Below, one piece after another: positions 36,281 to 55,652 of a DNA stretch of 64,000 nucleotides. The DNA lies in IMG/VR virus record IMGVR_UViG_3300044729_002678, positions 32,001 through 96,000 of that record; one strand, 5' to 3'. This DNA is from a virus. The notes beneath the pieces were generated by a model that did no database searches, had not been told where the DNA came from, and saw nothing but the letters and a program-made list of their open reading frames with translations. Numbering within the stretch: the stretch's first letter is position 1; every line of letters starts with the position of its first letter. A program made the position numbers and the translations under genes.

Positions 36281-36335
36281 TTTAATTCCTGTATTTTATT
36301 TATTTGACATATTTTATAGTACCACATTAATTTTT

Positions 36336-38345: not shown

Positions 38346-38379
38346 ATGTTCTCACAATTTATATGTTATAATTATATTT

Positions 38380-38625
38380 TTATTTATCTTTTTTTGTTTT
38401 TTTTCCGCTCAATACAATAAATTGAGATTGTAATTTTATAATTGTATTATAGACCAATTCAACATCAGAAACTTTAAATGTTGAATCCTTTATTGCGCTT
38501 AACAAAAAGGTAATCTCTTCCAACCCCAAATCATTTTCATTTGATGTTTGTTGTTTTGTTTCCACTACAACTTCTTCTTGTTGTGGTTGAACACTCTTTG
38601 TTCTTAATTTATCTAAAATTGACAT
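38380..38625 (-). CDS. Small hypothetical protein
   Basis: 81 aa with AAGGAG SD. Confidence 0.7.
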   Translation of the reverse strand: MSILDKLRTKSVQPQQEEVVVETKQQTSNENDLGLEEITFLLSAIKDSTFKVSDVELVYNTIIKLQSQFIVLSGKKTKKDK

Positions 38626-38643
38626 TTTGTAACTCCTTTATTT

Positions 38644-40665
38644 TTAAATATACATCCAAATTGTATTATTAGATGTGTTGATATGAACATTTCCAAATCC
38701 AGCAGAAGCGCTTCCATATGTTGGTGCTCCAGCGGCCGTATTTAATGGGTTTGCAGTAGATGCGCTTACACTCACCAAATAATCCGTAGGTGTTACTGTA
38801 GTAGCGTTATGGACAACATTGTTGTTTAATCCCCAACGAGCGCTTCCATCTGCGGGTACATTTGTACCATTATAAAAAAGAGCTGAACCCGTTGATATAC
38901 CACTACTACCAGATGTAGTTTGAACTATAATACCACCATCAGTTGTAGTACCGGAGCCGGATGCTAATAATATAAACTTATCTTCTATTGATATATTTGT
39001 TGTGTTTATTATTGTTGTATCACCGTTTACAGTTAAATCACCAGTAACAGTTAAATTCCCACCAACAGTAGCATTAGTTGCAACAGCCAATGTTGTACCA
39101 ATAGTGGCTGCACCACTTGTTGTAAGCGTTTGGCCTATTAATCCTGCGGATGAACTAATATTGCCTGATGCGGTTATTTGTGTTGTAGTTAAATTACCGC
39201 CAATAGTTCCATTTCCGCTTGTGTTTAGTGTCGCACCTATTAATCCTGCGGATGAACTTATGTTACCACTAGCGGTTATGTTTGTAGTTGTTATAGCACC
39301 ATTAGCAGTTAATCTGCCTGTTATAGTGCTTGTTCCACCAATAGTTTCGTTGCCTGTAATACTTAAATTACCACTTCCGCTTATGTTACCACTTGCGGTT
39401 ATGTTTGTAAAACGCGGGGAATCGTTAAATGAGAAAGTTATAACATCATCTTGGCTGGCGGATATTAACAAGTTATTGTTTGTGTTGGCACTTCCCGCAA
39501 ATGAGCCTGAATTGATAGTTAAAATATCTGCTGAACTATCGGCTGTTACTGTAACCCCACCAATTGTTATATTTGAAAATGAATTGATACCTGCTACATT
39601 ACCCGATGGTAATGTTGCTACTTTAACAAATTCACCACTAGAACTAACTAAAAGGATATGCAATCCTGATAAACTTGCGCTTGTTATTTCTGGTGTTGCT
39701 GATGCGGTTATGGTTGTGGTTGTTAATGCACCATTAGCGCTTAGTCTACCACCAATAGTTGCAGTTCCGCTTGTTGTGAGTGTAGCGCCTATTAAACCTG
39801 CAGATGAACTTATGTTACCCGATGAAGTTATTTGATTTACTACTATTGATTTAATTTCTTTACTTGATGAACCAATAACAATAGCATTATCTGCAAATGG
39901 AATTAAATCGGAATTTAATAACCCATCACCCAATGCAAAAAGACCATATACATTTACAGAATCATTAGAATCCCCTCCAAGATTTACACTACCATTAAAA
40001 TTGGTTTGTGTTGTACTACCACCAATATTTACAGTAGTAGCCCCACCTCCTAAATCAAGTTGAGTTAGATTTCCATCAAATATGCGAGCATTTCCAGTAA
40101 ATGTAGTTGTTATATCACCACCATTTACTGCTAAATCCCCACCAACAGTAGCTCCACCACTTGTTGTAAGCGTTTGGCCTGTTAATCCTGCGGATGAACT
40201 AATATTGCCTGATGCGGTTATGTTTGTAGTTGTTATAGCACCATTAGCAGTTAATCTGCCTGTTAAGGTTGATGTTCCCGTAATACTTAAATTACCACTT
40301 CCGCTTATGTTACCACTTGCGGTTATGTTTGTAAATGAGGGGGAATCTGCAAAGTCAAATGTTAATGTATCAGTTCCAGAATTAGTAGTAATCGTTAGGT
40401 TTGCATCGGATGATGAAATGATTAAGTTATCTGATGCACCATCTGCAAACACTGTTCCAGTTGAACCACCCAAGCCACCAACACTCATTGTAACGAATGA
40501 AAGAACGGATTGCCCTGTTAATGTTGCTTGTGAAACCTGTCTAACTTCACCTGCAGTACTTATTAATAACACATTTTCAGTTGTACCTGTTGGAACCTGG
40601 CTTGCGGTTACGCTTGTTAGATGGGCATTACTACCTGATACTATTACTTTTTTCCATGATGCCAT
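38644..40665 (-). CDS. Fibre protein with ITASGNIS repeats
   Basis: 673 aa; repeated TNITASGNISSSAGL.G.TL.TSG. Confidence 0.75.
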   Translation of the reverse strand: MASWKKVIVSGSNAHLTSVTASQVPTGTTENVLLISTAGEVRQVSQATLTGQSVLSFVTMSVGGLGGSTGTVFADGASDNLIISSSDANLTITTNSGTDTLTFDFADSPSFTNITASGNISGSGNLSITGTSTLTGRLTANGAITTTNITASGNISSSAGLTGQTLTTSGGATVGGDLAVNGGDITTTFTGNARIFDGNLTQLDLGGGATTVNIGGSTTQTNFNGSVNLGGDSNDSVNVYGLFALGDGLLNSDLIPFADNAIVIGSSSKEIKSIVVNQITSSGNISSSAGLIGATLTTSGTATIGGRLSANGALTTTTITASATPEITSASLSGLHILLVSSSGEFVKVATLPSGNVAGINSFSNITIGGVTVTADSSADILTINSGSFAGSANTNNNLLISASQDDVITFSFNDSPRFTNITASGNISGSGNLSITGNETIGGTSTITGRLTANGAITTTNITASGNISSSAGLIGATLNTSGNGTIGGNLTTTQITASGNISSSAGLIGQTLTTSGAATIGTTLAVATNATVGGNLTVTGDLTVNGDTTIINTTNISIEDKFILLASGSGTTTDGGIIVQTTSGSSGISTGSALFYNGTNVPADGSARWGLNNNVVHNATTVTPTDYLVSVSASTANPLNTAAGAPTYGSASAGFGNVHINTSNNTIWMYI

Positions 40666-40745
40666 AATTAGTTTTCCATTTTTACTTTATTAACCCTTAA
40701 ATATAAATAGTTTATATTTTTTTATTCTATATTAATTTATTATTT

Positions 40746-41387
40746 TTATTCAACTCCCAAATAAAAATTTCCATCAGAACCATAATACATCCCACCAGTC
40801 ACAGCCGTTGGTGGTGTATCAAATTTACCCAATACCATTACACCCTCTGAATTTATTTGTGCTGCAACAAAACTGCCGGATTTAATAATAAAAAAATCAG
40901 GGGCTTCAGACGATATTTTGGTTTGAACTTCGTTTGATTGATTATATATTGTTACACTTGATGTAGTTAATCTGACATTTCCTAATTGTATGTATTCATC
41001 TCCACCAAAAACTTCCGTAATAACCCCAGTATCATCAACAAAACTTAAACTTCTACTTACATACACATCACTCCAAGCAGCATCAGGACTACCAACGGAA
41101 AAATCGGATGTTTTACCTGATTGAACATAGGGGATAAGTGAACCTGAATAATTTACTGAGCCTGAAAATGAACTTCTACCAATAATTAGGAGATTTCCCA
41201 ATAGATTTACATTACCATTTGTAGTGGTATTTGTAGTTACTACTTCTTCAACAGTTTCACCTAAACTACTTGATTTTTTTAAAAATAATTTACCATCAGC
41301 AGTATTGACTGCTAACTCACCTAACGCAATGGAGGCTGTTGTCGGTATGTTCCCCGATACTAAATTTCTTTTTAGTATGATTGCCAT
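40746..41387 (-). CDS. Fibre-associated protein with an Mtd/hyaluronidase-like N-terminal domain
   Basis: I.LKR..V.G..P....LGELAVNTADGKLF. Confidence 0.6.
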   Translation of the reverse strand: MAIILKRNLVSGNIPTTASIALGELAVNTADGKLFLKKSSSLGETVEEVVTTNTTTNGNVNLLGNLLIIGRSSFSGSVNYSGSLIPYVQSGKTSDFSVGSPDAAWSDVYVSRSLSFVDDTGVITEVFGGDEYIQLGNVRLTTSSVTIYNQSNEVQTKISSEAPDFFIIKSGSFVAAQINSEGVMVLGKFDTPPTAVTGGMYYGSDGNFYLGVE

Positions 41388-41794
41388 TAGAAAAATCCCC
41401 CGTCAACATTTTCGGTAAATAAAGAATAACTTGCCGTACCAAATAAAGAACCAGTAAACGATGGTGCAATAATGTTATTAGTAACAACAAGTGAACCTGT
41501 TATAGTTGTGTTACCATCAACTTTAAATTCAGCAAGAACATCTAAATGCCCTACGGCATCTACTGTTTGAAATCTATCACCACCATCAACATTTTCAAAT
41601 ATTTGTAAACCAGTATCACCCCTATCACCTTTTGGTCCTTTGGATGTAACAGTTACTACATGAGTTTCTTTTTGTATTACATTTACGGATGTATCTTTAG
41701 TCTTATCAGTAACAATAACCCTGTTGTCAGATTTGTTTATTTCTACCGAATTTTGAGTTGATACAACTTTAACATTTAATCTATCATTACTCAC
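41387..41794 (-). CDS. Structural protein with a short collagen-like stretch
   Basis: GPKGDRGDTG; SFTGSLFGTAS; ends DGGFF. Confidence 0.55.
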   Translation of the reverse strand: MSNDRLNVKVVSTQNSVEINKSDNRVIVTDKTKDTSVNVIQKETHVVTVTSKGPKGDRGDTGLQIFENVDGGDRFQTVDAVGHLDVLAEFKVDGNTTITGSLVVTNNIIAPSFTGSLFGTASYSLFTENVDGGFF

Positions 41795-42180
41795 CTAGTT
41801 ACCTCTTTCGAAAGCTTTACAAGTCCTTCCAATAATCTCGTAACTATACCACCATTACTCTGCAATTCTATATCATATACACCTTCGGCGAAGTTTAAAT
41901 TTGATGATGATGCAGCAGAAATAAACAAACCAATACTACCCGATGTTCTTGGTAGAACAACCGATGCTGATTCTGGGGTAAGGTTTAATCCTGTCCCATC
42001 ATTAGAAAGTGTATTAGTAATACTTAAATATGTTGTGGATGAATCAACCGAAGGTCTTATTTGCATTCTTGCACTGTATCCAGTTAAGTCAACAGGCTCA
42101 CCATTAGAATCTTTCCATTCTAATAATAAATCCGTTGTCGAACCCTGTTCTATGGTCAATAAATATCTTCCAGCTGCCAT
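41791..42180 (-). CDS. Ig-like fibre attachment/adaptor protein
   Basis: IEQG.T, DLTGYSARMQIR, YDIEL, RLLEG.V.LS.EVT. Confidence 0.6.
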   Translation of the reverse strand: MAAGRYLLTIEQGSTTDLLLEWKDSNGEPVDLTGYSARMQIRPSVDSSTTYLSITNTLSNDGTGLNLTPESASVVLPRTSGSIGLFISAASSSNLNFAEGVYDIELQSNGGIVTRLLEGLVKLSKEVTR

Positions 42181-42208
42181 TTTATACTCCTATTATTAAT
42201 ATAAATAT

Positions 42209-42868
42209 CTAATATTCATATAATAGTTTAAATATTTCATCTAAAGCGGGATGTCTATGATTATCTTTTAATGTTACGGTGTAAACAAACCCACTTGGTT
42301 TTAATTTTGCTACTTCATGAATAGCAGAATCGTTTGCTGACTTTAAATCTATTTGTTGTGGGTCTCCACACAATATCATTTTTGAATTCTTACCCAATCT
42401 ACCCAACACCATCGCTAATTGAGATTTTGTAAGATTTTGAAATTCATCAATAATACAAACACATTCATCAAAAGTTCTTCCTCTAAAATGCGTAAGGGAT
42501 ACCAATTCTATTTTTTCATCCTGCTCCATTTTATCCAATACCGATGATTTATCATAAACTTTTCGCATATTAGAACGAATAGGAACTAACCACGGCTCTA
42601 ATTTTTCTTCCAAAGAACCTGGTAAAAATCCATTATCTTCATTAGAAACGGTGGGACGCGTTACAACAATTTTGTTATATTCTCTCTTAAAAAAGGAATC
42701 TAATGCTATTTGACACGCAAGTAATGTTTTACCACTACCAGCTTTTCCTAAAATAAAATTGAAGGGATGATTTAAGATATTTTGTTTTGCTACTTTTTGT
42801 TCTTCGGAAAGTGTAATTGAAAACTTTATATCACCTTTTGGAACTCTTTTTTCGGTATTTTCTATCAT
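42209..42868 (-). CDS. phoH: PhoH-family ATPase
   Basis: GKAGSGKTLLA, VTRP, GFLPG, RGRTF, DEFQN, GDPQQIDL, HRHP; start re-set to MIENTEKR, downstream of the late motif at 42892-42899. Confidence 0.92.
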   Translation of the reverse strand: MIENTEKRVPKGDIKFSITLSEEQKVAKQNILNHPFNFILGKAGSGKTLLACQIALDSFFKREYNKIVVTRPTVSNEDNGFLPGSLEEKLEPWLVPIRSNMRKVYDKSSVLDKMEQDEKIELVSLTHFRGRTFDECVCIIDEFQNLTKSQLAMVLGRLGKNSKMILCGDPQQIDLKSANDSAIHEVAKLKPSGFVYTVTLKDNHRHPALDEIFKLLYEY

Positions 42869-42904
42869 AATGTAACCCTTTATACTTTTAATATAAATAT
42901 CCCA

Positions 42905-42943
42905 TAAAAAACAAAAGGGGATGATTTTCATCATCCCCCTTTG
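42905..42943 (-). terminator. Rho-independent terminator after the major capsid gene
   Basis: GGGGATGA-N6-TCATCCCC stem with a T tract. Confidence 0.85.
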
Positions 42944-42970
42944 AAAACACTTTAACTATTATGTGATTGA

Positions 42971-44611
42971 TTAAGCACCACCAATAGTTTCCAATCCGTT
43001 CACATATACTTTACCATAGAACTCACCTCTGACCATTTCTTTGGCGTAGCGAGTCATTACACCCTTACGAGGAGTAAAGTTTTTGTAATCGTACACAAGA
43101 GGCGTCATAATCAATGGAATGTATGGAGCGTAAACAGCACCAGTTTCCAAGAATTGTGTTCCTCTGTAACCCATCAAAATCAAGTTTTCTTGCATATATG
43201 GGTTCTTATAAACCTGATATCTTTGTGCGAAAGAACCTACTTTGGTCATACCAAATGCAAATTGTCTTTCATCACCAGTTCCATCAGCAGTGTATCCTGG
43301 AATTGATTCCAAAATAGTAGCAACATCAGGAGAACATACTAAGAAGTTTGCACCACCACGCATTGTCTTAGCGTGAATTTGGTTAGAAACTCTCTGCAAT
43401 ACAGTTCCCAAAGTTGCGAACCAAGTACCCTGAATGTAAGCTGCTACATTAGTAGTGTTCGCATTTGTGAATGTAGTTCCATTCCATTCCTGTCCGATTT
43501 TTGCAGACCAGTAACCTGTAGTCAATGCGTTCTGAATCAACATGTCCAAAATCTCAAAATCAATCTCTTGTGATACATATTCAGATAACATTGAAGTTAA
43601 TTCTGCTTCTGCATCAATAGAGTGATATGCGTTCAAGTCCTGCGCAAATTCAGGTGTCCATTGTGCTTTCAACTTACGAGTTTTAGCAACAATTGGAACT
43701 GAACGCATTTCGATGTTCAATTCTGGGATTTCCAAATCCGTTTCAGGATTTGCTGCCATTTGTGTTTTTGATACCTCAAAATCACCACGAGTTACATCAG
43801 TTGGTTGTTTTTGGTATCTGATAGTAGCCGCTGTGGCGCCTGTTGCACTTGTAACTTTACAAACGAAAGCAATTTGAGTATCGGTTGAGTTTACAGTTGT
43901 AAATTGTGGGTAAAATGTTTCAATGTTAGTACCACTAATTGTAAACGCACGAACACCTTCCAAATCAGGACGAGTAAACGAACCTGTACTGAATGTTAAT
44001 TTTTGGAAAACACCACCAGCCGTTGAAGCAGACCATGCGGTATCATAGTTAAAATCAGCAGCTGAAATAGAAGCTGTTACCATAGCTGTGTCTGTAGGAG
44101 CCGCAGCTTTTGTAGAAATTGCTGATGTAGCATCATCGTTGATAGTGTAACCAAAACGACCAGCGCCATACAAACCACCTGAGGCTTGGTTGGCTGTTTC
44201 GGTAATACCAAATACTGAGTCGGCTTGTGAATTTTTACCAGAACCGGTTGTAAAACCAGGCTGACCTGTTCCATACTTAAAATCTAAATAGAAAATAAGA
44301 CCGGATGGGAGATTCATAGGTTGAACTGAAACAAACTCTTTCGCAGCGATTTCAGAGAAAATACGGCGAACAAGCGGAAGGGCTACGCCATTCCACTCTT
44401 CAGAGTTGTTGAACATTGATGTGGCAGAAGCTTCAGTTACTAACTGCTTTGCCTGATTTTCCAAAAGTTGAGCCATGTTGTTGATTTCGGTCTCATTGGT
44501 AATTTCATCTAAAAGACCGGTTTTTTTCCACTTGGCTACTAAACCTTTGGCTTCTTTACGAAGAACTCTTTCGAATCCTGCGCTTTCTTTTAAAATGCTA
44601 TTTATATTCAT
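42971..44611 (-). CDS. Major capsid protein (gp23-like)
   Basis: LPLVRR, VQPMNLPSGLIFYL, AKTRKLKAQWTPEFAQDLNAYH.IDAEAEL, YAPYIPL, MTRYA. Confidence 0.96.
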   Translation of the reverse strand: MNINSILKESAGFERVLRKEAKGLVAKWKKTGLLDEITNETEINNMAQLLENQAKQLVTEASATSMFNNSEEWNGVALPLVRRIFSEIAAKEFVSVQPMNLPSGLIFYLDFKYGTGQPGFTTGSGKNSQADSVFGITETANQASGGLYGAGRFGYTINDDATSAISTKAAAPTDTAMVTASISAADFNYDTAWSASTAGGVFQKLTFSTGSFTRPDLEGVRAFTISGTNIETFYPQFTTVNSTDTQIAFVCKVTSATGATAATIRYQKQPTDVTRGDFEVSKTQMAANPETDLEIPELNIEMRSVPIVAKTRKLKAQWTPEFAQDLNAYHSIDAEAELTSMLSEYVSQEIDFEILDMLIQNALTTGYWSAKIGQEWNGTTFTNANTTNVAAYIQGTWFATLGTVLQRVSNQIHAKTMRGGANFLVCSPDVATILESIPGYTADGTGDERQFAFGMTKVGSFAQRYQVYKNPYMQENLILMGYRGTQFLETGAVYAPYIPLIMTPLVYDYKNFTPRKGVMTRYAKEMVRGEFYGKVYVNGLETIGGA

Positions 44612-44642
44612 TTTTATATCCTTTGTTTAATAGTTTATACAA

Positions 44643-45734
44643 TTATTTTTTGATGTTAGCAAGCTTTTGGAATCTTGTAGCCAACGAAGAACCTTCGGTT
44701 ATGATACCAGCAGGTTTTGTTCCTTTGGTTGGTTTAGATGCAAATGATTCTCTAACAAATCTTTTTTGTGATTTTTTAGCAACATTAAGGTTTTCACCCA
44801 ATGTAGCAAACACTAATTTTACTTCTCTCAAAGATGAAGCACGGTCAAAGTTTTCTACAACTTTAACTTTTTGCTTTTCATTCAAATCAAAGTTTCTGAA
44901 AAGTTTGTTTGTGTAAAGTAGTTTTGCATTCAAAAGGTTTACTTCGTTAATGGTGTTCTTTAACGATTTAATTACTTTATATGCTTCTTCCAAATCACTC
45001 TTCATTTCTTCAGCCTCTTCTTCAGTCATTCCACCCTCTTCTTCATCTGCTGGCTCTTCACCATTCATTTCTCTAAGGGCCCTAATAACTTCATTCAAAT
45101 CAACTTCTTCATCGCCACCTTCTTCTTCAAAGAACTCACCAGTTCCTTGTTCATCTTCGGTTTCAGAATCGTAGTTAGCAACTTTATTATCACCTGCGCC
45201 AATTTCAGATGACTCTAATTCTTGTAATCTTTTTGATACTCTTTCACGAATTTTTTTCAATTCTGTGATTTCTGGGTTTTCTTCTTCAGCGGGCTCTCCT
45301 CCCATTTCACCTTCTAATTCTCTGATAATTGATTCTAAGTCTAAATCACCCATTTCATCATCATCATCTTCTTCAGCAGGTTCTTTGGTTTCAAATTCAC
45401 CACCCATTTCATCTTCTTCTTCAACAGGCTCGTCGGTTTCAAATTCACCACCCATTTCATCTTCTTCTTCAACAGGCTCGTCGGTTTGAAATTCACCACC
45501 CATTTCATCTTCTTCACCCATATACTCATCGGTTGTTGCAAACTCTTCTTCTTCCCCCATTGGAACTTCTTCATCTTCTAACTCTTCAGCAATTTTGTGA
45601 GACAACATTGATTGGAGTCTTGGAGTGAATGCTTCCTCAAGGGCGATTTTTGCATTTGCTAATGCTGTTTCTTTAACGGCTTTAGCATCGGCGATTGCTT
45701 CTTTAAGCAAATCTTTATTGCCTTTATTTTTCAT
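44643..45734 (-). CDS. Prohead core scaffold protein (gp22-like)
   Basis: Acidic, coiled-coil, directly upstream of the capsid gene; EVNLLNAKLLY, RFQKLA.I. Confidence 0.8.
   Translation of the reverse strand: MKNKGNKDLLKEAIADAKAVKETALANAKIALEEAFTPRLQSMLSHKIAEELEDEEVPMGEEEEFATTDEYMGEEDEMGGEFQTDEPVEEEDEMGGEFETDEPVEEEDEMGGEFETKEPAEEDDDDEMGDLDLESIIRELEGEMGGEPAEEENPEITELKKIRERVSKRLQELESSEIGAGDNKVANYDSETEDEQGTGEFFEEEGGDEEVDLNEVIRALREMNGEEPADEEEGGMTEEEAEEMKSDLEEAYKVIKSLKNTINEVNLLNAKLLYTNKLFRNFDLNEKQKVKVVENFDRASSLREVKLVFATLGENLNVAKKSQKRFVRESFASKPTKGTKPAGIITEGSSLATRFQKLANIKK
45390..45514 (-). repeat. 48-bp in-frame repeat (EEDEMGGEFxTDEPVE), about 3 copies
   Basis: aattcaccacccatttcatcttcttc repeated. 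Confidence 0.85.
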
Positions 45735-45844
45735 TTAATCTCCTAAATTTTTTTGGAAAAGTAAGATTATTATAAATCTTAATAATTGTTATAATAATTT
45801 TAGTTCCACAATAGTGTGTTGGAACATTAATTTGATAATAAATA
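45735..45844 (-). promoter_or_regulatory. Late promoter and two-hairpin leader of the scaffold-capsid operon
   Basis: TATTTATT at 45837-45844; hairpins 45803-45825 and 45762-45781; AGGAGA SD. Confidence 0.55.
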
Positions 45845-45868
45845 GAGGAGTTTTTTAAAAACGATATT

Positions 45869-46126
45869 TTATTCTGCTTTACTTTTCAGATATTGTTTTC
45901 TAATGGCCAATTCCATTTTTTTTCTTTTTTCTATTGATTTTGGTACGAATTCAGTTCTTTCTTTCAAAACATCCATCATTCCGCTATCTTTAACCATTTT
46001 TTTGAAAAGTCTTAATGCTGCTTCAACATTATTGTCTACCACTTTAACTGCCATTCCCCTACCAGGAACATACATTAACTCTCTTCTAATTTTTTTCTTT
46101 TTTGGTCTTTCTTCGTTTTCGTTCAT
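45869..46126 (-). CDS. rpsU: Phage-encoded 30S ribosomal protein bS21
   Basis: V.V...NVE.ALR.FKK.V...G.....K.R..F...S..KR.K...A pattern. Confidence 0.85.
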   Translation of the reverse strand: MNENEERPKKKKIRRELMYVPGRGMAVKVVDNNVEAALRLFKKMVKDSGMMDVLKERTEFVPKSIEKRKKMELAIRKQYLKSKAE

Positions 46127-46141
46127 AACTTTTTTTTAAAA

Positions 46142-46462
46142 TTAAACTATTTGTAAATTGTATATTGATTCAGTAACCAAACCATTTTTAGTTCTGATTA
46201 ATGCTTTTTCTTTTTTTATTTCTACCACAACCCCACCATACTCCTTATCAAGTATCATAACAGGAGAACCAACTTCAATTAAGTTTGCATCTTCTATTAT
46301 TGTATTTTCCGATATATCATCTAATACAACCTTAAAAGCACGAATTGCTTTTGAAATACCTGTTTTTTGTTTTTTGGGTAATTTATTAATATCCTTTAAA
46401 TTATCTTTTATAAAATCAGAAAATTTAAGTGATAAGTTTTGTATAATGTCTATTGCTGGCAT
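46142..46462 (-). CDS. Hypothetical protein with a C-terminal KOW/SH3-like module
   Basis: IEVGSPV.I.....GGVVVEI....A.I. Confidence 0.6.
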   Translation of the reverse strand: MPAIDIIQNLSLKFSDFIKDNLKDINKLPKKQKTGISKAIRAFKVVLDDISENTIIEDANLIEVGSPVMILDKEYGGVVVEIKKEKALIRTKNGLVTESIYNLQIV

Positions 46463-46476
46463 GAGTTGTTACCTTT

Positions 46477-48243
46477 TTATTTTTTATGTGATTTAAATCC
46501 CTGTCCCTTCATCCACCAAGCCAATGCCCAAGGATTATCAATACCCGGTTCATCTTTCATCGCTTTTACTGTTTTTTTCCATCCTTCGGGTGCAACTTCG
46601 TTGGTTACTTGTTTATTTTCCACAAATGGTTTAAAAGCCGAAATAACTTTATCTGCTGTCATTTTATCAAATTTGCTTTGCATTGCAACATCACCAACTT
46701 TGTATAATTTCAACAACTTTTCTGCTGTTTTCTTATCAACTTTTGTAGAACCAACGCGGGAAGTAGAACCATCTACTACACTCTTTAACAAGTCAGATAA
46801 TTTTACATTTGCTTCATTTACTTTTTTTTTTAAAATAAGATTTGATAGTTTCATTTCACCAACAAAATCTTTTGCATTTTCTTTATCTTGCGGGTCTACA
46901 TCGGTTACTTTATAAGTCTTACCACCAACAGTGAAAGTATCCTCACCTGCTGCAATTGCTCTTGCTCTTTCAGCACCAAATTCATTACCTTCATCCATTA
47001 CGATTTCTGCATCACTCAATTTTCCTTTAACAAGACCACTTACAGTTTTAATTACAACTTCGTTACCTTTAACAGAATAAACCATTCCTGTCTTATTTTG
47101 TGATTTAAGATGGACGGTATCTCCAAACTTTGGTTTTTTTACTTCCTTCACTAAATTTTGAAATTTCATCAATACAATTGCGTAATTACCCACTTTTCTT
47201 TCTGCACCAGCTGCGTATTTTTTATTTACAATTGCAATAGTGTTCCCAGATACTTTAATTATATACATTGGTATCATTTCAGTTGAGAAATCATATTTAA
47301 TTCCTGCTTTTTTCAATTCAGAACCAACGTTCATAAATGATGATGCGTTTTTAACTGCCGCTTCAATTTTATCTAAATCAGCATCGTATTTACCTTCGTT
47401 TACTGATTCTTTAATAACATTCTCCATTAATCCAATTGCAATATCTTTAACTTCTCTTTCTGCACCAGCTGCATATTTTTTATTTACAATTGCAATAGTG
47501 TTTCCAGATACTTTAATTCTATACATTGGTATCATTGAAGTTGAGAAATCATACTTTACACCAATTTTCTTTAATTCAGAACCAACGTTCATAAATGATG
47601 ATGCGTTTTTAACTGCTGCTTCAATTTTATCTAAATCAGCATCATACTTACCTTCATTGATTGATTTTTTGTTTATTAATTGACTTAATTTCATGTTTTC
47701 TCCTACAAAATCTTTTGCATTTTCTTTATCTTCGGAATCTACATCCGTTACTTTAAATGTTTTATCACCAACTTGGAATGTATCTTCACCTGCTGCAATT
47801 GCTCTTGCTCTTTCAGCACCAAATTCATTACCTTCTTTTATTTCGTAATATTTACCCAATATCTCACCAATTTCATCATAAGACGATTCCAACCTTTGCT
47901 GGAGAGTTGATACTTCTTTGATAGTGTTTGTAAAAATCTTAAAAGATTCGTTCATAGATTTCATATGACGAGAAACAGTTACCTTATCAAACCAATCACC
48001 AGTTTCTTGTAAAGTTAATTTATGAGCGGTTTCAACAATCTTTTTAATGTTTTGGTATGCTTCCATCAAATTACCATTATGGTAAATTGCCTCACCAATT
48101 TTTCGGTATGAAGCAACTGCCTCAACAAAAGCCCTTTTTTCTTCATTGGTCATTTTTGTATCATCCAAATCTTCCTCACCAATGTTTAATCTACGATAAT
48201 CCATATGCTGTGATTCTTTTAATAAGTTAAATAGTTTTTTCAT
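46477..48243 (-). CDS. Modular internal head protein with duplicated modules
   Basis: A-B-B-C-A module layout with xNE junctions. Confidence 0.7.
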   Translation of the reverse strand: MKKLFNLLKESQHMDYRRLNIGEEDLDDTKMTNEEKRAFVEAVASYRKIGEAIYHNGNLMEAYQNIKKIVETAHKLTLQETGDWFDKVTVSRHMKSMNESFKIFTNTIKEVSTLQQRLESSYDEIGEILGKYYEIKEGNEFGAERARAIAAGEDTFQVGDKTFKVTDVDSEDKENAKDFVGENMKLSQLINKKSINEGKYDADLDKIEAAVKNASSFMNVGSELKKIGVKYDFSTSMIPMYRIKVSGNTIAIVNKKYAAGAEREVKDIAIGLMENVIKESVNEGKYDADLDKIEAAVKNASSFMNVGSELKKAGIKYDFSTEMIPMYIIKVSGNTIAIVNKKYAAGAERKVGNYAIVLMKFQNLVKEVKKPKFGDTVHLKSQNKTGMVYSVKGNEVVIKTVSGLVKGKLSDAEIVMDEGNEFGAERARAIAAGEDTFTVGGKTYKVTDVDPQDKENAKDFVGEMKLSNLILKKKVNEANVKLSDLLKSVVDGSTSRVGSTKVDKKTAEKLLKLYKVGDVAMQSKFDKMTADKVISAFKPFVENKQVTNEVAPEGWKKTVKAMKDEPGIDNPWALAWWMKGQGFKSHKK

Positions 48244-48257
48244 TTCATTTCCTTTTT

Positions 48258-49214
48258 TCAGTAAGAACCTGGTCTATTACCTTTTTTCATAGAAGTTGCC
48301 CAAATACCAATCATCTTTTTAATATCGGCGGGAATTTCTTTATCATAAATAGTTAGTTTACCATCTTTTCCTATATGGGCTATCGTTTCATAATCACCAT
48401 CTTTTTCTTCTGCCCTATTCCAAATAGTTAAACCATTACCCAAATATCCAGACCCAATATCGTATTTTTTAGCTTCGTTTAGTAATTTTTCCGAATATAC
48501 AGTCATACCGGTGTTGTCCTCAATTGTAAATATATAACCCGGTATATTTGTAACCTTTTTCATATGTTCAAACTTTGCAGGAATTTCATTTTTTGTTTTT
48601 ACCTGTGTTTGATAATACACTTTTTTATTAAACGATACTACAATAGTCCAAGGACCTGTTTGAGAACCCTTTTTAATACCGGCCATCATTTTTGCTGAAT
48701 TAGTAGCTTCGTTTACTGATTCTTTGATATATTTCATAGAAGAGTTTGAACCATCGGTAAAGAATACATTATCACCATCAATCATTTTTACTTTTCTTTT
48801 GAATGGGCCTTTTTTACCTAAAGCTGCTTCCCAATGTGGATTATCAACAACTTTAACCATTTGACCAACTTTGATTTCTTTTTTTACTGATTCTTGAAGC
48901 TTTTTAATTAGCTTATTTTGAATTGGATTATTCGGTTTTCCAGACACCGCAGTCACAAAATCCATTCTGTCTGAAAGTTTTCCCTTCTTAACAAATTGGA
49001 AAACTTTTTCGATATCCAAATTGTGAGTATCAACAAACTTTTGAACTGCATCTTTATTTAAACCGGTAAGTCCACCAATTTCCATTGCGGTTCTCGAAGC
49101 GGACTCTAATTTTAAGCTTTTTTGTGTGTTTTGAACTGCCACCAAATTCATTTCTTTTTTTGCAATCTCTCTAATCATTTTTTTGAGTTGTTCTAATTTC
49201 ATTTTGTTTCCCAA
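48258..49214 (-). CDS. Modular hypothetical protein (probable internal head protein)
   Basis: MKLEQLKKMIRE leader; ESVKKE, ESVNE and LLNE junctions. Confidence 0.65.
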   Translation of the reverse strand: MGNKMKLEQLKKMIREIAKKEMNLVAVQNTQKSLKLESASRTAMEIGGLTGLNKDAVQKFVDTHNLDIEKVFQFVKKGKLSDRMDFVTAVSGKPNNPIQNKLIKKLQESVKKEIKVGQMVKVVDNPHWEAALGKKGPFKRKVKMIDGDNVFFTDGSNSSMKYIKESVNEATNSAKMMAGIKKGSQTGPWTIVVSFNKKVYYQTQVKTKNEIPAKFEHMKKVTNIPGYIFTIEDNTGMTVYSEKLLNEAKKYDIGSGYLGNGLTIWNRAEEKDGDYETIAHIGKDGKLTIYDKEIPADIKKMIGIWATSMKKGNRPGSY

Positions 49215-49846
49215 TTTTTAGGACATTCGCAATATCCACCAATTTCACAAATAATATCTCGCATTATACTATTAGCAGTTTCATATTTATTCACTTTTGA
49301 ACCCCTACTAACACCCTCATTAACGGGTTTCATAAAAGCCCCATGAGTAGATGGGTTACTTACAAAATCCCAACAAATTAAATCAAAATCGTTTTCTACA
49401 GCAACAGTACCATCTTCTCTAATTTGACGAACTGAACCCATACCCCGTGAAGATATTCCTACCGTACAACCTGCTTCTATCAATTCTTTAAGTATTCTGC
49501 CCGATGGGGTATTTAGTATTTCTACTTTACCAACAACATCTTTACCATTCCACCATACATCTCTAATAATATGTGAAGTATTTTTTAATTCCACAACCGA
49601 TGATTCTGGGTGGTCTAACTCACCATATGCACGATTTTCTGTTATCTCTCTACCCTTATATTTATCAACCTCACGCTTCAAAATATTTTCGGGATATATT
49701 CTACCATTTTGGTTTTTTTCATTTGCCCTTTGAAGAACACCAGTTACAATTAATCTACCATTACCATTCATAGCAGCTTCTTTAAGCTGTTGTGGTTTTA
49801 CATCAAATACAATAGTATCAATTAATAGTTGTTTCATATCAGGCAC
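49199..49846 (-). CDS. Prohead core protease (gp21-like)
   Basis: NQNGRIYP, GELDHP, SH, GISSRGMGS, DFVSNPS. Confidence 0.93.
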   Translation of the reverse strand: MPDMKQLLIDTIVFDVKPQQLKEAAMNGNGRLIVTGVLQRANEKNQNGRIYPENILKREVDKYKGREITENRAYGELDHPESSVVELKNTSHIIRDVWWNGKDVVGKVEILNTPSGRILKELIEAGCTVGISSRGMGSVRQIREDGTVAVENDFDLICWDFVSNPSTHGAFMKPVNEGVSRGSKVNKYETANSIMRDIICEIGGYCECPKNWETK

Positions 49847-50366
49847 CCAATTGTCTTATTTTACTTGAAATTCGGTTTAATCGCTCTGATATTTTAGAAA
49901 AATTGTTTCTTGTTTTTTTCCAATAAGCACCAGATGAAATACCCATTTCTGTCTTTAGTTTTATATTTTGATTCACTAAGTGTTCAACCTCATATATCTT
50001 TCTATTAATTTCTTTAATAGCCTTATTAATTTTATATTGTGGGGAACCTGTTTCATCTTTTCGGTATTGACGATAGTTCATTTCATTGATGACATCCTCA
50101 ATCTTTTTTTCCCAATTTTCTAAAAAATTTCTTTTTACATTTTTTACTTTTTTATACCCCAACACCTCAATATGGTCATTATCCATATCTCCTTTACTTT
50201 TCGCAAAAGCATGTGGAGTTCGTGGTGGACCAGCACCGCCATCCAAATTACCGGTAACATTTTGTTCACCCAAATCCTCATCATCCTTTTCATCGGGATT
50301 GACGATTTCCTCTTCTTCTAATTGCTTAAATTTTTTATCAAGCTCTTCAATTAAAAACCTACTCAT
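49839..50366 (-). CDS. Conserved head-module hypothetical protein
   Basis: TPHAF motif and C-terminal coiled coil; between portal and protease. Confidence 0.7.
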   Translation of the reverse strand: MSRFLIEELDKKFKQLEEEEIVNPDEKDDEDLGEQNVTGNLDGGAGPPRTPHAFAKSKGDMDNDHIEVLGYKKVKNVKRNFLENWEKKIEDVINEMNYRQYRKDETGSPQYKINKAIKEINRKIYEVEHLVNQNIKLKTEMGISSGAYWKKTRNNFSKISERLNRISSKIRQLGA

Positions 50367-51205
50367 TATTGAACACCCTTTAATTCGTTTAACAATTGAT
50401 AGTATCTTAAAAGTCCAAGTGCTTGAACCTCCGATACGATTTTTGCGTTGGATAAATTATCAATCAACCCAATAACCTCTTTTAACTTAATGGAAGAAAC
50501 TTTATCAGTAATTTTAAACTTTGAGAATTCATTTTTAAGTTTTTTACTTTCCCTTAAAATAAATCTTTTTAAATTGCCTGAATTATCAATATTGTTAATA
50601 TAATTTCTAAGAACCAATTTTTGTTCGCTGGTTAGTTCTTTATACTTATCATTAAATTTATCAACTAAAAACTTATAAGCCAATAACCTAACATCTTTTG
50701 ATTCTTTACTATACAAATCAGTATTTTCTTCTTTTATAGGTTTTTTTGTTTTTGTTATATTTTCTAAAATTTGATTTTTACATTCAACCCATTCTTTTGG
50801 ATATGTATTTTCTTGATTCTCAAATAGTTTATATATAGTGGCAAGTGATTTATAGTTATTTACCCTATACTTAAAAAAATCTTTAGCATCAAACTTTTCA
50901 TTTATTGATTTAATAAGATTATATTTTTCTTTTTTTAAATTGGTTTCATTTAATTTTTTTCTTTCAACCAAAATAATATTAAGAAACTCACTTGCTTTGT
51001 ATGTATTATCAAAATTTTCTTTGACAAGATATTGATACATTTTAAGTTCTTTACTTAATTCACTACCCTGCTTAAAATGCTTTTTAATTATAGATAATCC
51101 TATTGAATTTTTTTCATTCAAAGTATCAGATGCAATCTGCCTAACAAGAAGTTCAAATAAAACCCCAGTGTTTTTAAATTTAGAATGCTTTAATTTAGTG
51201 TTCAT
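50366..51205 (-). CDS. Conserved head-module hypothetical protein
   Basis: KHSKFKNTG.LFELLVRQI. Confidence 0.7.
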   Translation of the reverse strand: MNTKLKHSKFKNTGVLFELLVRQIASDTLNEKNSIGLSIIKKHFKQGSELSKELKMYQYLVKENFDNTYKASEFLNIILVERKKLNETNLKKEKYNLIKSINEKFDAKDFFKYRVNNYKSLATIYKLFENQENTYPKEWVECKNQILENITKTKKPIKEENTDLYSKESKDVRLLAYKFLVDKFNDKYKELTSEQKLVLRNYINNIDNSGNLKRFILRESKKLKNEFSKFKITDKVSSIKLKEVIGLIDNLSNAKIVSEVQALGLLRYYQLLNELKGVQ

Positions 51206-51250
51206 TTATAATTATCCTATCTTATCAATAAATAAATATACAAAATTTAA

Positions 51251-53152
51251 TTAAACATCGTTATTTAATATGTTTCTTTCATCCAACATATCAAATTTTT
51301 GGTTTTTTTCATCGGTATCTGTCAACAATGACTCAACTATAATTTTTTTAGTTTTTATTTTTGAATTTTGTAAGCTTGTTTTTAACTGCATCCCTTCAAC
51401 AGAAAGTGGTGATTTCCTAAATGTATGGTATGCTTTTTCAGGTTTTATATCCGTTTCATATCCCATTGCGTTTCTTCCAAAAGAACTATCATCAGTTCCA
51501 GCAATACTACCCTCTTCCGGTCTACCAGCCCCTTCAAATCCACCAGGAGGTGAACCACCTTCATTATCACCAGAAGCAGGTTGCCCTCCCGCTTCTGCCG
51601 ATTGTTGTGATAATGCTGCCAAATCATGCGGAGTTCCAAACGATTCACCAGTCTTAATTGGGTCATTACCCTCAGTTTCAATTTGGGACTGTCTAAATCC
51701 TAATTTCAAATCGTTAATAACTTTAACCTGTTCTGCTTTCCACTCATCATCGGACATGTTAAATATATTTTTATATACCCATTCTTGTGAAAGTAGTTTT
51801 GATGTTTTTATATCCGATGCCAATCGCACATTTTCAATCCAAAGAGCAACCTTTTCTTGCTGATAAATTATTGATGGTGGTGTTAATTCTAAATAGAAGT
51901 TAGATAAGGCCTCATTTTCGTATCCCTGTGCATACAAATGTATGATTGCTATTTTTGTCAATTCGGATAAAACAATTTTTTGTACCCGCTCAATACTCCT
52001 AGCAAAACGAATATCTTGTTGAGCAAGCGTCGCTTTACCCTCTACACCCTCTTCATAACCAATAAATGCTTTTGGAACTTTAAGAGCGGCCTGCATTCGG
52101 TTTTTAAGATAATTTATATCCTCAATACCAGTGAATTCCATTCCACCCAAAGTATCAATTTGAGTACCACTTTGACCACCTCTTACGGGTAAATAATAAT
52201 CTTCTAACATATTTTGTATGTTAAATTTAAGATTATAATCACCAGTAGCTTCATCTACATAAGGAACTTTTTTCATTTGGTCTATAATGTTCCTAACATG
52301 CTGGTCTACTTCATTTGGTGGTATGTTACCAACATCAATTTTAAATACCCTTTTTTCAGGAGCACGCATAATACGATGAATTAACATCGCATCTTCCATA
52401 AGGGTTAATTGTTTCCAAGTTTTTCTAGCAGGTTCTAATAAGGAACGACCATAAGGTAAAAAGTTTGTGTCTGAAAATAACCTAAAATGGGCTATTTTAT
52501 AAAATGGAATATAATTTTGTATATCGTTGCTAGATTTTTGATAATTAAATCCGGTAGCACCACCACCCATCGTTGTCATTTTAAATCTAACTTCATATGG
52601 GTTATCGGAATTAAACCCCTCTTCTCTTTCAATTTCATATGCTGATATTGGTGATACATTTACAATACCAATACCCTCTTCAATATCTAAGTTAAGATAG
52701 TAATCGCCATATTTATTCATCCCTCTAATCCACGCCCAAAGATTAAATTCTATATTAAGGACATCATAAAAAAGATTTTGTAATATTTTTTTAATATTTT
52801 CATCATCCGAATTAATCCTCAATACATCCCCAAGATCGTTCTTGAGTGTGCATTCATCCGAGTAAATATCTAAAACGGATGCAATAATTGAATCTTTATC
52901 CATCGCCTCATAATCAGTATAAAGTTCTAACCGATTGGATGAATAATTGTATTGATTATTGTAAGTTTCCCAATTTTGACGAGATGAGTGTAATCTACCA
53001 AATCTATCGTAGTAGGAAGTTCCTTTTATATTACCCTGCGATTGTAATCGTTGTGTATCAATAGCCCTAGTTTTACCCTTACCAATTCTTCTTACTACAA
53101 CCTGAGTTGAAAAGAGTTTTTGTAATCTACCGAATAAAGATTTATCTGCCAT
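51251..53152 (-). CDS. Portal protein (gp20-like)
   Basis: YGRS.LE.AR..WKQL.LMEDA..IHRI.RAPE.RVF.IDVGN, EDYYLP.R. Confidence 0.95.
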   Translation of the reverse strand: MADKSLFGRLQKLFSTQVVVRRIGKGKTRAIDTQRLQSQGNIKGTSYYDRFGRLHSSRQNWETYNNQYNYSSNRLELYTDYEAMDKDSIIASVLDIYSDECTLKNDLGDVLRINSDDENIKKILQNLFYDVLNIEFNLWAWIRGMNKYGDYYLNLDIEEGIGIVNVSPISAYEIEREEGFNSDNPYEVRFKMTTMGGGATGFNYQKSSNDIQNYIPFYKIAHFRLFSDTNFLPYGRSLLEPARKTWKQLTLMEDAMLIHRIMRAPEKRVFKIDVGNIPPNEVDQHVRNIIDQMKKVPYVDEATGDYNLKFNIQNMLEDYYLPVRGGQSGTQIDTLGGMEFTGIEDINYLKNRMQAALKVPKAFIGYEEGVEGKATLAQQDIRFARSIERVQKIVLSELTKIAIIHLYAQGYENEALSNFYLELTPPSIIYQQEKVALWIENVRLASDIKTSKLLSQEWVYKNIFNMSDDEWKAEQVKVINDLKLGFRQSQIETEGNDPIKTGESFGTPHDLAALSQQSAEAGGQPASGDNEGGSPPGGFEGAGRPEEGSIAGTDDSSFGRNAMGYETDIKPEKAYHTFRKSPLSVEGMQLKTSLQNSKIKTKKIIVESLLTDTDEKNQKFDMLDERNILNNDV

Positions 53153-53171
53153 AAGTATAAATATAATTTTT

Positions 53172-54755
53172 TTAAAATAACCAACCTAAATCAACATCAT
53201 TACCACGAATATCTTTCATAATATATGGATTTTGGCCTGAGTTTTTACTTGAGAATACCGTTATTTGATTTCCAGATACACGGGTGATACTACTTAAAGC
53301 ATTTCTTGTTAAGTTCATACCTTGCTGTCTTAACTTCAATGCGGTATCTCTAACCCAAAGACCTGTAGAAAATGATATAACCAAATCATCATTATATCCC
53401 CTTTGTGCCTCTGCTTTTGACCCATTCCATATAAAAACAAATAACTCATCCAACAATCGTTTAGAGTGAATTATTGGTGATTTTTCTCTCATATAAGTAT
53501 CTAATTTAGATACTATTAAAGGCCTCGTTTTTTGTGTCATTGAAAATCCTGGCACCATATCTTCTTTTTGCTTTAAATCCCATCCCCTCCTTAAATGAAT
53601 ATCTTCATCTATATATCCCAACTCCCTATACGAATAGTAAAGATTTCCATAATTACGGTCAATTACTTCCTGAATAACAGCCCATCCAATATTTGCATTT
53701 TCAATCACCAAAAGGGCGTTGTTCCATTCTGCTGCTACCGATGATAAGAAAGCACCATATTGTTTTGTTTCTATTTTACCTTTGTATTCCGCCACCTGCT
53801 CTAACTGCTCAACATCAATCACATGAAAAGCAGAATAATCTGCTCCATCTCCCCTTGCAACATCCGCCACAACTATATAATCTTTTGAATAGTTAGGATA
53901 ATCCCATATCCAATAATTTGCATCAAATCCACGCTTCTCAATAGGTTCTGTTACATGCGTTTCTTTATACCACTCCAATACAGAACCATCAACGACTGTG
54001 TAACCTGATGAAATAAAATCAGTATCACATTCTTGAGCAGCACCCTTTTCCCCCAATAATCTTGTTTGTTCATCTCTCCATCTTTGATTTCTTTCGGGGT
54101 GAACCGTCCAGTGTAATCTCGTTGGATGCCATTTATCACCAGCTTCTCCCTGCTGCCAAACTTTATGGAAAAAATTACCAACCCCATTTGGTGTTGAAAG
54201 AACTATTGCACCACCACCAGTTGAAAGTGTGGATTGTGCAGATAACCAAATCTCTTCAATACCTTTGATAAATGCGGCCTCATCTATAATCAATAAAGAA
54301 AGTGCTTCAGAACGTCCTGCGGTTTCAGTCGCAGAAACTGCTTTGATTTGAGAACCATTTTTTAATCGAAGTGATAATTTATTATCTTCAGCAGCACCCA
54401 CCTTTAACCAACTTGGTAGATTATCATACATAAATCTAACCTTTGTAACCAAGTTTTTTGCTACATCTTGCGTTGTTGCAATTACAAGAACATTCTTATC
54501 TCTATGAAATATCATCAACCAAGTTGCGTATCCAGCTGAAATAGTTGATATACCTAATTGGCGGGATTTTAGAATAACATTAAATCGGTGGGTTTTAAAA
54601 GAATCAATTAAATCTTCTTGGAAATCATATAGGTTAAATAATATTTTTCCCCTATGCGGGTGCTGTATGTAACAATATTTTTTAAAAAAATATATTGGGT
54701 CTTTCGCACACTTTACATACTCTTCTGATATTAATTCTTTTAAAGTTTTCGGCAT
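53172..54755 (-). CDS. terL: Terminase large subunit
   Basis: KSRQLGIST, LIIDEAAF, STPNG, ADVARGDG.DYS, IENAN.G, DDLV. Confidence 0.95.
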   Translation of the reverse strand: MPKTLKELISEEYVKCAKDPIYFFKKYCYIQHPHRGKILFNLYDFQEDLIDSFKTHRFNVILKSRQLGISTISAGYATWLMIFHRDKNVLVIATTQDVAKNLVTKVRFMYDNLPSWLKVGAAEDNKLSLRLKNGSQIKAVSATETAGRSEALSLLIIDEAAFIKGIEEIWLSAQSTLSTGGGAIVLSTPNGVGNFFHKVWQQGEAGDKWHPTRLHWTVHPERNQRWRDEQTRLLGEKGAAQECDTDFISSGYTVVDGSVLEWYKETHVTEPIEKRGFDANYWIWDYPNYSKDYIVVADVARGDGADYSAFHVIDVEQLEQVAEYKGKIETKQYGAFLSSVAAEWNNALLVIENANIGWAVIQEVIDRNYGNLYYSYRELGYIDEDIHLRRGWDLKQKEDMVPGFSMTQKTRPLIVSKLDTYMREKSPIIHSKRLLDELFVFIWNGSKAEAQRGYNDDLVISFSTGLWVRDTALKLRQQGMNLTRNALSSITRVSGNQITVFSSKNSGQNPYIMKDIRGNDVDLGWLF

Positions 54756-54764
54756 TGGTTTTTA

Positions 54765-55367: not shown

Positions 55368-55611
55368 TATTTTTTTTCTGCTTTTTTTGTCTTGATTTAT
55401 AATTATTTCTTCTTTTTGGTTTTGGTTTTACTTCTTCTGTTTTCACTTCTGGTGATAATTGACCCACAGATGCTTTTGCAGATGTAAGTGGTTTGATTTG
55501 TGTTTTTAATGGTTCTATCTTTACAATTTCTAATGTTTCAGGTAAATTTATTATTTTTTTACCCATAAAAAATCGATCGAACGAACTCAATAACTTTTTT
55601 AAAATGCTCAT
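55354..55611 (-). CDS. Small basic hypothetical protein
   Basis: 85 aa, AGGAGG SD, late motif. Confidence 0.65.
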   Translation of the reverse strand: MSILKKLLSSFDRFFMGKKIINLPETLEIVKIEPLKTQIKPLTSAKASVGQLSPEVKTEEVKPKPKRRNNYKSRQKKQKKNNETV

Positions 55612-55652
55612 AACTTTTCCTCCTATTATTATAAATACTGATTTTAATTTTA

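Follow-up and report, generated by a model that had tools for sequence, protein, structure and literature searches.

Why would a phage carry a gene for a ribosomal protein, and which messages would such a protein favour? Among ribosomal proteins, bS21 is the one that phage genomes contain most frequently. What it does there has been a standing question since 2019, and the proposals made so far name no feature of the mRNAs that would be affected. The question is posed in a tractable form by a stretch of 64,000 nucleotides (hereafter the window) comprising bases 32001-96000 of IMG/VR record IMGVR_UViG_3300044729_002678, the genome of a virus that we refer to as G000 (161,618 bp, 33.5% GC). At window positions 45869..46126, on the minus strand, it has a gene for a bS21 protein of 85 amino acids (aa), situated within the head module, with the prohead-protease region on one side and the scaffold/capsid genes on the other. 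A reading made from the sequence alone (the sequence-only reading) had proposed that this protein turns on the use of Shine-Dalgarno (SD) sequences for the late genes of a phage infecting a Bacteroidota host. Our analysis supports a link between phage bS21 and SD-led genes; it shows what the gene encodes, where SDs lie within G000, that the two traits co-occur across relatives, and to which lineage the host probably belongs. Our preferred but tentative explanation is that bS21 is coupled to SD-led translation of late genes in a host whose ribosomes are otherwise blind to SDs.

The identity of the open reading frame (ORF) as a genuine phage-encoded paralogue of ribosomal protein bS21 is established. 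Its product matches PF01165 (Ribosomal_S21; E 5.3e-11, 42.5 bits with a cut-off of 27, residues 27-79) and TIGR00030 (E 4.1e-10, 39.3 bits with a cut-off of 28.95), and has 14 homologues of 65-95% identity, all of them about 85 aa in length. The AlphaFold2 (AF2) model has helices at residues 34-48, 50-59, and 65-84 with a mean predicted local distance difference test score (pLDDT) of 70, preceded by an unstructured N-terminus of low pLDDT; the linker reads P-K-S, not K-P-S. When this model was compared to the PDB using Foldseek, only weak matches were returned (best E 0.6), all of which were organellar bS21 chains, and this result tells nothing past the fold family of the predicted structure.

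The sequence-only reading had also remarked on a basic N-terminal extension of about 24 residues, and this extension is a real feature of the protein. It corresponds to codons 1-24 (MNENEERPKKKKIRRELMYVPGRG; 46055..46126, minus strand) and is kept as protein within the clade. An internal start at Met25, which is preceded by AGGGGA, was considered and rejected because Met25 is not conserved, being Ile or Leu in relatives, while it is the amino acid sequence of residues 1-24 that has been kept; we conclude that the extension is translated. The cellular bS21s of Flavobacteriales metagenome-assembled genomes (MAGs) have 62-64 aa and begin at the equivalent of G000 residue 25, without an extension. 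Similarly, a length of 62-65 aa with no extension is a trait of Bacteroidia-type bS21 that the G000 protein does not match. A comparable basic stretch followed by a PG motif is found in phage bS21s with either Arg or Tyr at the position equivalent to residue 54 of the Flavobacterium johnsoniae protein.

That position is of interest because, in Bacteroidia, bS21 sequesters the anti-SD and Tyr54 stacks on A1534 (Jha et al., 2020, PMC7797042). In a gapless HMMER alignment, residues 32-83 of the G000 protein correspond to residues 10-61 of the bS21 of F. johnsoniae (7jil chain z), which places Arg76 (codon AGA, 45899..45901, minus strand) at the Tyr54 position, as the sequence-only reading had proposed. 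Tyr or Phe occupies this column in four bS21s from Flavobacteriales MAGs, and Arg76 and Tyr79 are invariant in the phage clade (15 members), so the aromatic residue that is the signature of the anti-SD-sequestering Bacteroidia-type protein is absent from G000 bS21. Tyr79 (codon TAT, 45890..45892, minus strand) is an aromatic residue three positions after Arg76, opposite Thr57 of F. johnsoniae, and Tyr or Trp at position 57 is common among the Arg54-type sequences (e.g., RKQY and RAEW). In Bacteroidia-type bS21 the C-terminal domain is described as less basic than that of other phyla (Jha et al., 2020). The C-terminal domain of G000 bS21 has a net charge of +5 and an isoelectric point (pI) of 10.1, compared to +3 and 10.0 for the partial F. 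johnsoniae domain, and the median C-terminal pI is 11.4 for the related Arg54-type phage proteins versus 10.2 for the aromatic type.

G000 is a myovirus of about 162 kb that is distantly related to T4, with 200 of its 213 called ORFs on one strand and transcription that is almost wholly one-way. The bS21 gene has the same strand as the neighboring structural genes, with which it is predicted to be co-transcribed. Those genes were named from their annotated orthologs in Flavobacterium phage vB_FspM_immuto (hereafter immuto) and Microcystis phage Mel-JY01, and include the large terminase (53172-54755), portal (51251-53152), prohead protease (49199-49837), scaffold (44643-45734, minus strand), and gp23-like major capsid protein (MCP; 42971-44611, minus strand), while the tail sheath (16866-19262) and tail tube (16334-16825), both also on the minus strand, were identified by orthology to the Mel-JY01 tail sheath and Gp19 tail tube, respectively. 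As described in the sequence-only reading, the bS21 gene itself has an A-rich leader with no SD (TTTAAAAAAAAGTT-ATG; 46127..46141, minus strand, as read from the sequence). The energy of pairing between this leader and the anti-SD is +1.3 kcal/mol, and the start is 15 nt past the stop of an upstream gene for a 106-aa protein. A scan for E. coli-type (sigma-70-type) promoter and terminator consensus sequences around bS21 found none. A search of G000 for genes of bS18 and bS6, the two proteins that complete the anti-SD pocket, was likewise negative.

The absence of an SD from the bS21 leader is conspicuous given the leaders of the genes around it. GGAG occurs 5-10 nt before called starts on the coding strand 19 times, compared to an expectation of about 3, with a peak at 6 nt, and AGGAG occurs at those positions 10 times, compared to about 0.6; the GGAG count thus exceeds chance. 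To score individual genes we used a strict definition of an SD (GGAG or GAGG, 4-20 nt upstream of the start) and an energy-based one (a duplex with ACCUCCUUU at -5.5 kcal/mol or lower). Strict SDs precede 21 of the 78 structural genes but only 2 of the 121 other genes (Fisher p=5.4e-8), with a null of 6.5% at internal ATGs, so that late genes are enriched relative to the null (p=1.8e-8) and the remaining genes are depleted (p=0.013). This count, made genome-wide, bears out the enrichment in late over early genes that the sequence-only reading had anticipated. The energy-based definition gave the same picture (27/78 structural versus 6/121 other genes; Fisher p=6.6e-8): the 27 SDs of the structural block (genome 29.7-114.4 kb) include 15 at -7 kcal/mol or lower, while the block of small early genes has 4/88 and the replication/sugar-modification block has 2/33. 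Within the window, the structural (late) module spans 2356..59522 on the minus strand and 20 of its 57 called genes have an energy-based SD located 5-10 nt from the start.

Several genes for virion components are led by SDs, and every SD that had been listed from the sequence alone was found in place. On the minus strand, the scaffold gene has AGGAG at a spacing of 5 nt (45740..45744), the sheath gene AGGAG at 6 nt (19269..19273), the tube gene AAGGAGA at 7 nt (16833..16837), and the MCP gene the SD-like AAGGA at 7 nt (44619..44623). The strongest SD in the window, AGGAGG (55619..55624, minus strand; spacing of 7 nt, -10.2 kcal/mol), precedes a gene for an 85-aa protein at 55354-55611. The longer form AGGAGA is present not only at the scaffold, sheath, and tube genes but also at the genes at 15345-16214 and 22209-22601, and AGGAG is present at those at 41791-42180 and 38380-38625.

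If bS21 and SDs were functionally connected, the two would be expected to travel together among related phages, and for the most part they do. We collected 158 MCP-anchored loci from IMG/VR, searched them in six frames with the bS21 hidden Markov model (HMM), and scored their SDs, keeping loci with at least 10 genes and calling bS21 absent only where at least 4 kb upstream of the MCP gene was available. Strict SDs were present at 3% of genes (24/742) in the 46 loci with no bS21, compared to 24% (79/331) in the 18 loci whose bS21 has an aromatic residue at position 54 and 31% (231/741) in the 41 loci whose bS21 has Arg, Lys, or Leu there. Similarly, the MCP leader contains AGGA, GGAG, GAGG, or GGGA in 50 of 53 distinct bS21-bearing loci versus 2 of 45 bS21-less loci. 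Of 98 distinct MCPs, 45 come from loci with both bS21 and SDs, 44 from loci with neither, 8 from loci with bS21 but not SDs, and 1 from a locus with SDs but not bS21. The bS21 gene is consistently an exception within its own module, as none of 38 distinct bS21 genes in related loci has a strict SD while about 27% of their neighbors do.

The annotated relatives illustrate both states. No bS21 was found across the genome of immuto, a phage whose host is a cultured Flavobacterium, and its scaffold, MCP, sheath, and tube orthologs have A-rich leaders without SDs (the scaffold leader is CGACAAACAAACACAAACTAAG); genome-wide, its SDs fall under its null (1/85 and 4/127 versus 10.9%). Likewise, no bS21 was found in a complete immuto-like genome of 162 kb or in four larger fragments. 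Mel-JY01 has a syntenic bS21 with Lys54 and GGAG-type SDs on its scaffold, capsid, sheath, and tube orthologs. This phage (L017 / PP395634.1) has an MCP that is 58% identical to that of G000 and is recorded on Microcystis elabens, although the lineage in which it falls points otherwise to Flavobacteriales. It has no match to a type IX secretion system (T9SS) sorting domain and its SDs are on late and other genes alike. A literature search for Mel-JY01 found no paper. The host assignment or the host range of this phage deserves checking.

The same comparison does not uphold the specific cause that the sequence-only reading had put forward, namely that replacement of Tyr54 by Arg is what permits SD use. 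Tyr54-type phage bS21s had been expected to accompany SD-free late genes, but residue 54 was rejected as a discriminator because loci with an aromatic residue have SDs at 24% of genes versus 31% for those with Arg, Lys, or Leu, and the per-locus medians (0.22 versus 0.31) give p=0.13. Moreover, sister phages can differ in this residue, one having a Tyr54 and the other an Arg54 protein (L049 versus L051; 99% support in the Shimodaira-Hasegawa-like approximate likelihood ratio test of the MCP tree). As Tyr54-type phage bS21s show the same association with SDs, the change from Tyr54 to Arg is not the determinant, although Arg76 may contribute in this clade. If bS21 does enable SD use, the determinant would be something common to both forms, and the shared basic N-terminal extension is a better candidate than residue 54. 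Extension length was also tried as a predictor of SD use and fits only partly, as short extensions go with a lack of SDs in L055 and L111/L113 but with SDs in L092 and L108. Thus the co-occurrence of bS21 and SDs across relatives supports a link between the two, but not one with residue 54 as its basis.

The host of G000 is very probably a marine member of the Flavobacteriales, in agreement with the Bacteroidota host that had been deduced earlier. One product of G000, 518 aa in length, has a C-terminal sorting domain of the T9SS type (PF18962, E 2.7e-9; outside the window at genome 131487-133043, corresponding to L013:1487-3043, minus strand), and the domain is also present in the bS21-bearing relatives G001, G004, G005, and G013 and in immuto. 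This protein is predicted to be a phage product that would leave the cell via the type IX secretion of the host; a search for its homologs returned only unnamed phage-like proteins and no host name. The closest cellular homologs of the G000 UvdE are 60-71% identical and overwhelmingly in marine Flavobacteriales/Cryomorphaceae/Flavobacteriaceae MAGs, including contigs of 1.0-1.4 Mb. Two of these candidate-host genomes have a GC content of 32-33%, near that of the phage, and strict SDs at 0/86 and 2/59 of their genes, compared to internal-ATG nulls of 8-9%. In addition, G000 carries several intergenic promoter motifs of the Bacteroidota type (-33 TTTG / -7 TAnnTTTG). The rpsU genes of the candidate-host MAGs (L250-L253) have A-rich leaders without SDs, unlike those of F. 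johnsoniae and many other Flavobacteriales, and SD-based autoregulation of bS21 may be absent in that lineage.

What is known of bS21 in this phylum makes a connection to SD reading plausible. F. johnsoniae ribosomes that lack bS21 have a freed anti-SD and translate SD-led mRNA (PMC9976891; PMC7797042), so that occupancy of the ribosome by bS21 is known to toggle SD recognition, and bS21 is essential in this bacterium (McNutt et al., 2023, PMC9976891). The arrangement that we propose for G000 is like the autoregulation of F. johnsoniae rpsU in that bS21 occupancy of the 30S platform decides whether SDs are read. It differs in that the F. johnsoniae switch is the absence of bS21 and concerns one gene, rpsU, while here it would be the presence of a viral paralog and would concern dozens of late genes. 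Also, F. johnsoniae rpsU is led by an SD and the phage bS21 mRNA, the opposite, has none. A precedent for alternative bS21 paralogs acting on one ribosome pool and altering mRNA selection is found in Francisella tularensis (PMC9578407), although this is a cellular, SD-using gammaproteobacterium in which neither viral takeover nor anti-SD sequestration is involved. Entry of a phage bS21 into E. coli ribosomes has also been reported, as cited in PMC9976891.

Based on these considerations we propose a mechanism of four steps. The bS21 mRNA, being SD-less, A-rich, and host-like in style, would be translated by the ordinary SD-blind ribosomes of the host. The phage protein would then take the place of the exchangeable host bS21 on the 30S subunit. 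A 30S subunit substituted in this manner would stop hiding the 3' tail of the 16S rRNA in the bS21/bS18/bS6 pocket, or would stabilize the helix formed by the SD and anti-SD. Finally, the SD-led mRNAs for scaffold, capsid, sheath, tube, and other virion proteins would gain a private and efficient route of initiation late in infection. In this model, which we regard as the most economical, the phage paralog would leave the 16S 3' tail free for pairing, and the best candidate feature for this is the shared N-terminal extension, which would project from the helix lying over the anti-SD. In E. coli, S21 is itself said to make the 16S 3' end available for pairing, a role reportedly described in 1981 by Backendorf et al. 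and by van Duin and Wijnands. That the phage protein enters ribosomes, that it frees the anti-SD, and that cause runs from bS21 to SD use are points that we infer. We would extend this proposal, with somewhat less confidence again, to a fuller statement: that phage bS21 converts an SD-blind Bacteroidota ribosome to an SD-reading one, thereby opening for late virion genes a channel that is closed to host mRNAs; that bS21 and SD-led late genes co-evolved across this large lineage of aquatic myoviruses; and that the extension, not residue 54, is the part that acts.

Several observations weigh against a causal role for bS21 in SD use. The association is a correlation only, and many further genes differ between the bS21-bearing and bS21-less relatives. 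On the MCP trees (a quick tree and a FastTree tree), bS21 changes state only about four times, which leaves 3-4 independent contrasts; a sign test on so few has no power and significance is out of reach. One of these contrasts, L109/L115 versus L098/L111-113, runs in the opposite direction or shows no difference. Three loci have a bS21 (Arg54, with little or no extension) and scarcely any SDs (L055, 1/19; L111, 2/30; L113, 2/18), and as exceptions they could help to map the determinant, while L115 (53% GC) carries SDs but has no bS21 close by. The contrast between late and other genes is weak in G007, a complete genome of the Tyr54 type (7/75 versus 7/109), and in the complete genome G005, which is of the Arg type and T9SS-positive, it is weaker than in G000 (14/68 versus 12/151). 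As the bS21 gene lies in the late module, its product could play no part until late transcription has started. Chen et al. (2022, PMC9723584) held that phage bS21 keeps the anti-SD blocked. Lastly, the hosts proposed for bS21-bearing members are at most probable ones, and Mel-JY01, the nearest cultured one, is recorded on Microcystis. A tblastn search of cultured phages with G000 bS21 gave no match, and other bS21 queries found no Bacteroidota phage with bS21 among the cultured phages in our collection. The host of the bS21-bearing group is accordingly a deduced one, and with no bS21-bearing relative of known host, the confounding effect of host stays unbroken.

Of the other explanations, the one that survives best, though we consider it unlikely, is that phage bS21 has a generic role in hijacking or maintaining ribosomes, whereby it replaces or tops up the loosely bound host bS21 as host expression collapses. 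The essentiality of bS21 in F. johnsoniae (PMC9976891) means that supply alone could matter. Alternatively, it may favor phage mRNAs by some feature other than the SD. In either case the co-occurrence with SDs would reflect the common ancestry of one large clade or a co-inherited factor; the small number of bS21 state changes, the near absence of SDs from L055 and L111/L113, and the many other genes by which the two groups of phages differ are all consistent with this, as is the fact that the Tyr54-type phage bS21s look competent for anti-SD sequestration (Chen et al., 2022, PMC9723584). What it does not readily accommodate is the persistence of canonically spaced SDs across MCPs of 54-85% identity, since an SD-blind ribosome would allow them to decay. 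Nor does it account for the bS21-less relatives and candidate hosts falling below their internal-ATG nulls for SDs, or for a bS21 gene that is consistently SD-less within an SD-rich module.

A second explanation, which we regard as improbable, is that the bS21-bearing clade simply infects bacteria that read SDs, such as non-Bacteroidia members of the FCB (Fibrobacteres-Chlorobi-Bacteroidetes) group or cyanobacteria, and that bS21 is incidental. Mel-JY01, with its Lys54 bS21, SDs on structural and other genes, Microcystis record, and lack of a T9SS match, fits this well, as does the lack of a cultured Bacteroidota phage with bS21 in the collection, and Arg or Lys at position 54 together with an aromatic at position 57 is reminiscent of the pattern outside Bacteroidia. 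However, in an SD-using host the early and replication genes of G000 would not be expected to lie under the SD null (2/121 versus 6.5%). The T9SS sorting-domain genes of G000 and four bS21-bearing relatives, the UvdE homologs and matching GC, and the Bacteroidota-type promoter motifs of G000 all argue against such a host, and the Tyr54-type phage bS21, which carries the Bacteroidota signature, also sits among SD-led genes. Equally improbable is a reversed logic in which bS21-free ribosomes, accumulating after host rpsU stops, read the SD-led late mRNAs and phage bS21 is a brake or timer that, late in infection, hides the anti-SD again or brings back full activity: although the gain of SD-dependent translation by bS21-free F. 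johnsoniae ribosomes (PMC9976891), the potential of Tyr54-type phage bS21s to sequester the anti-SD, and the escape of an SD-less bS21 mRNA from an SD regime would suit it, bS21-less relatives would gain equally from SDs and yet avoid them, the Arg, Lys, and Leu54 variants lack the signature stacking residue, and it is difficult to see why a brake would share an operon with its targets.

Other features of the locus deserve mention. Further SD sites in the structural module, all on the minus strand, are at 59519-59522, 59172-59175, 58661-58664, 48250-48254, 42187-42191, 41802-41805, 41398-41401, 38634-38638, 22811-22815, 22611-22615, 16224-16228, 14813-14816, 12677-12680, 3612-3615, and 3123-3126. 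Besides the SD-led and A-rich leaders there is a third start context, in which ATATTTATAC(T/A)T lies directly against the ATG, as seen at the portal gene and at several further SD-less genes (minus-strand sites at 53153-53164, 5531-5542, 29767-29778, 56600-56611, 60101-60112, and 62465-62476). With at most one mismatch the motif has 22 matches compared to 13 +/- 3.8 expected; it resembles a -7-type or late-promoter element, and the mRNAs would be leaderless or nearly so. The scaffold protein (44643-45734, minus strand) has three tandem acidic repeats, EEDEMGGEF(E/Q)TDEPVEE, and its immuto ortholog is wrongly annotated as "DNA polymerase phi-like." A 588-aa protein encoded just upstream of the bS21 region (46477-48243, minus strand) has long internal duplications: two units, one of about 80 aa (NEGKYDADLDKIEAAVKNASSFMNVGSELKK...) and one reading DEGNEFGAERARAIAAGEDTF, are each present twice. 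Elsewhere in the genome, a block of 88 very small early ORFs (mean of about 90-115 aa) occupies 114-161 kb, and a block of glycosyltransferase, epimerase, and aminotransferase genes adjoins the gene for DNA polymerase B at 1-30 kb.

Several elements of this account have been described in other phages. Chen et al. (2022, ISME Commun, PMC9723584) reported phage bS21 in freshwater myoviruses infecting Bacteroidetes, with a late-module placement, late expression, and a predicted host of the Flavobacteriia type, in keeping with the statement of the sequence-only reading that late-expressed phage bS21 genes were already known, and proposed that its substitution into host ribosomes favors late phage mRNAs. 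As in those phages, the bS21 of G000 is in the module of the large terminase (TerL), portal, protease, and MCP genes; unlike theirs, which is on the strand opposite to the structural genes, it shares the strand of those genes. Position 54 is Tyr or another aromatic residue in all 61 of their proteins, while it is Arg in G000 and one of Arg, Lys, or Leu in 41 of the 59 related loci with bS21, which corrects the generalization that phage bS21 always has an aromatic residue there. Their paper contains no analysis of ribosome-binding sites, and the terms "RBS" and "ribosome binding" appear nowhere in it. A basic N-terminal extension like that of G000 bS21 was described for the rpS21 of huge phages by Al-Shayeb et al. 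(2020, Nature, PMC7162821), who proposed that it aids ribosome binding or preferential initiation, and phage bS21, including that of Pelagibacter phage HTVC008M, was described by Mizuno et al. (2019). Neither work ties bS21 to SD-bearing late genes or to bS21-less relatives, and Al-Shayeb et al. tied their SD prediction to rpS1 only. In our search of the literature, no paper was found that connects the bS21 of phages with late genes bearing SDs, or with relatives that lack both SDs and bS21. This suggests that, while phage bS21, its basic extension, and its late expression are already published, the link to SDs is new.

The present analysis thus supplies what the earlier proposals lacked, a named feature of the mRNAs: SDs on the structural genes of bS21-bearing phages. 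Canonical SDs are not used by the bS21-less relatives, by the early genes of the bS21-bearing phage itself, or by its candidate hosts, and the association turns a vague idea of redirected translation into a prediction that is testable in F. johnsoniae. If it is true, a virus would be changing how the ribosome recognizes its sites of initiation by swapping one small ribosomal protein.

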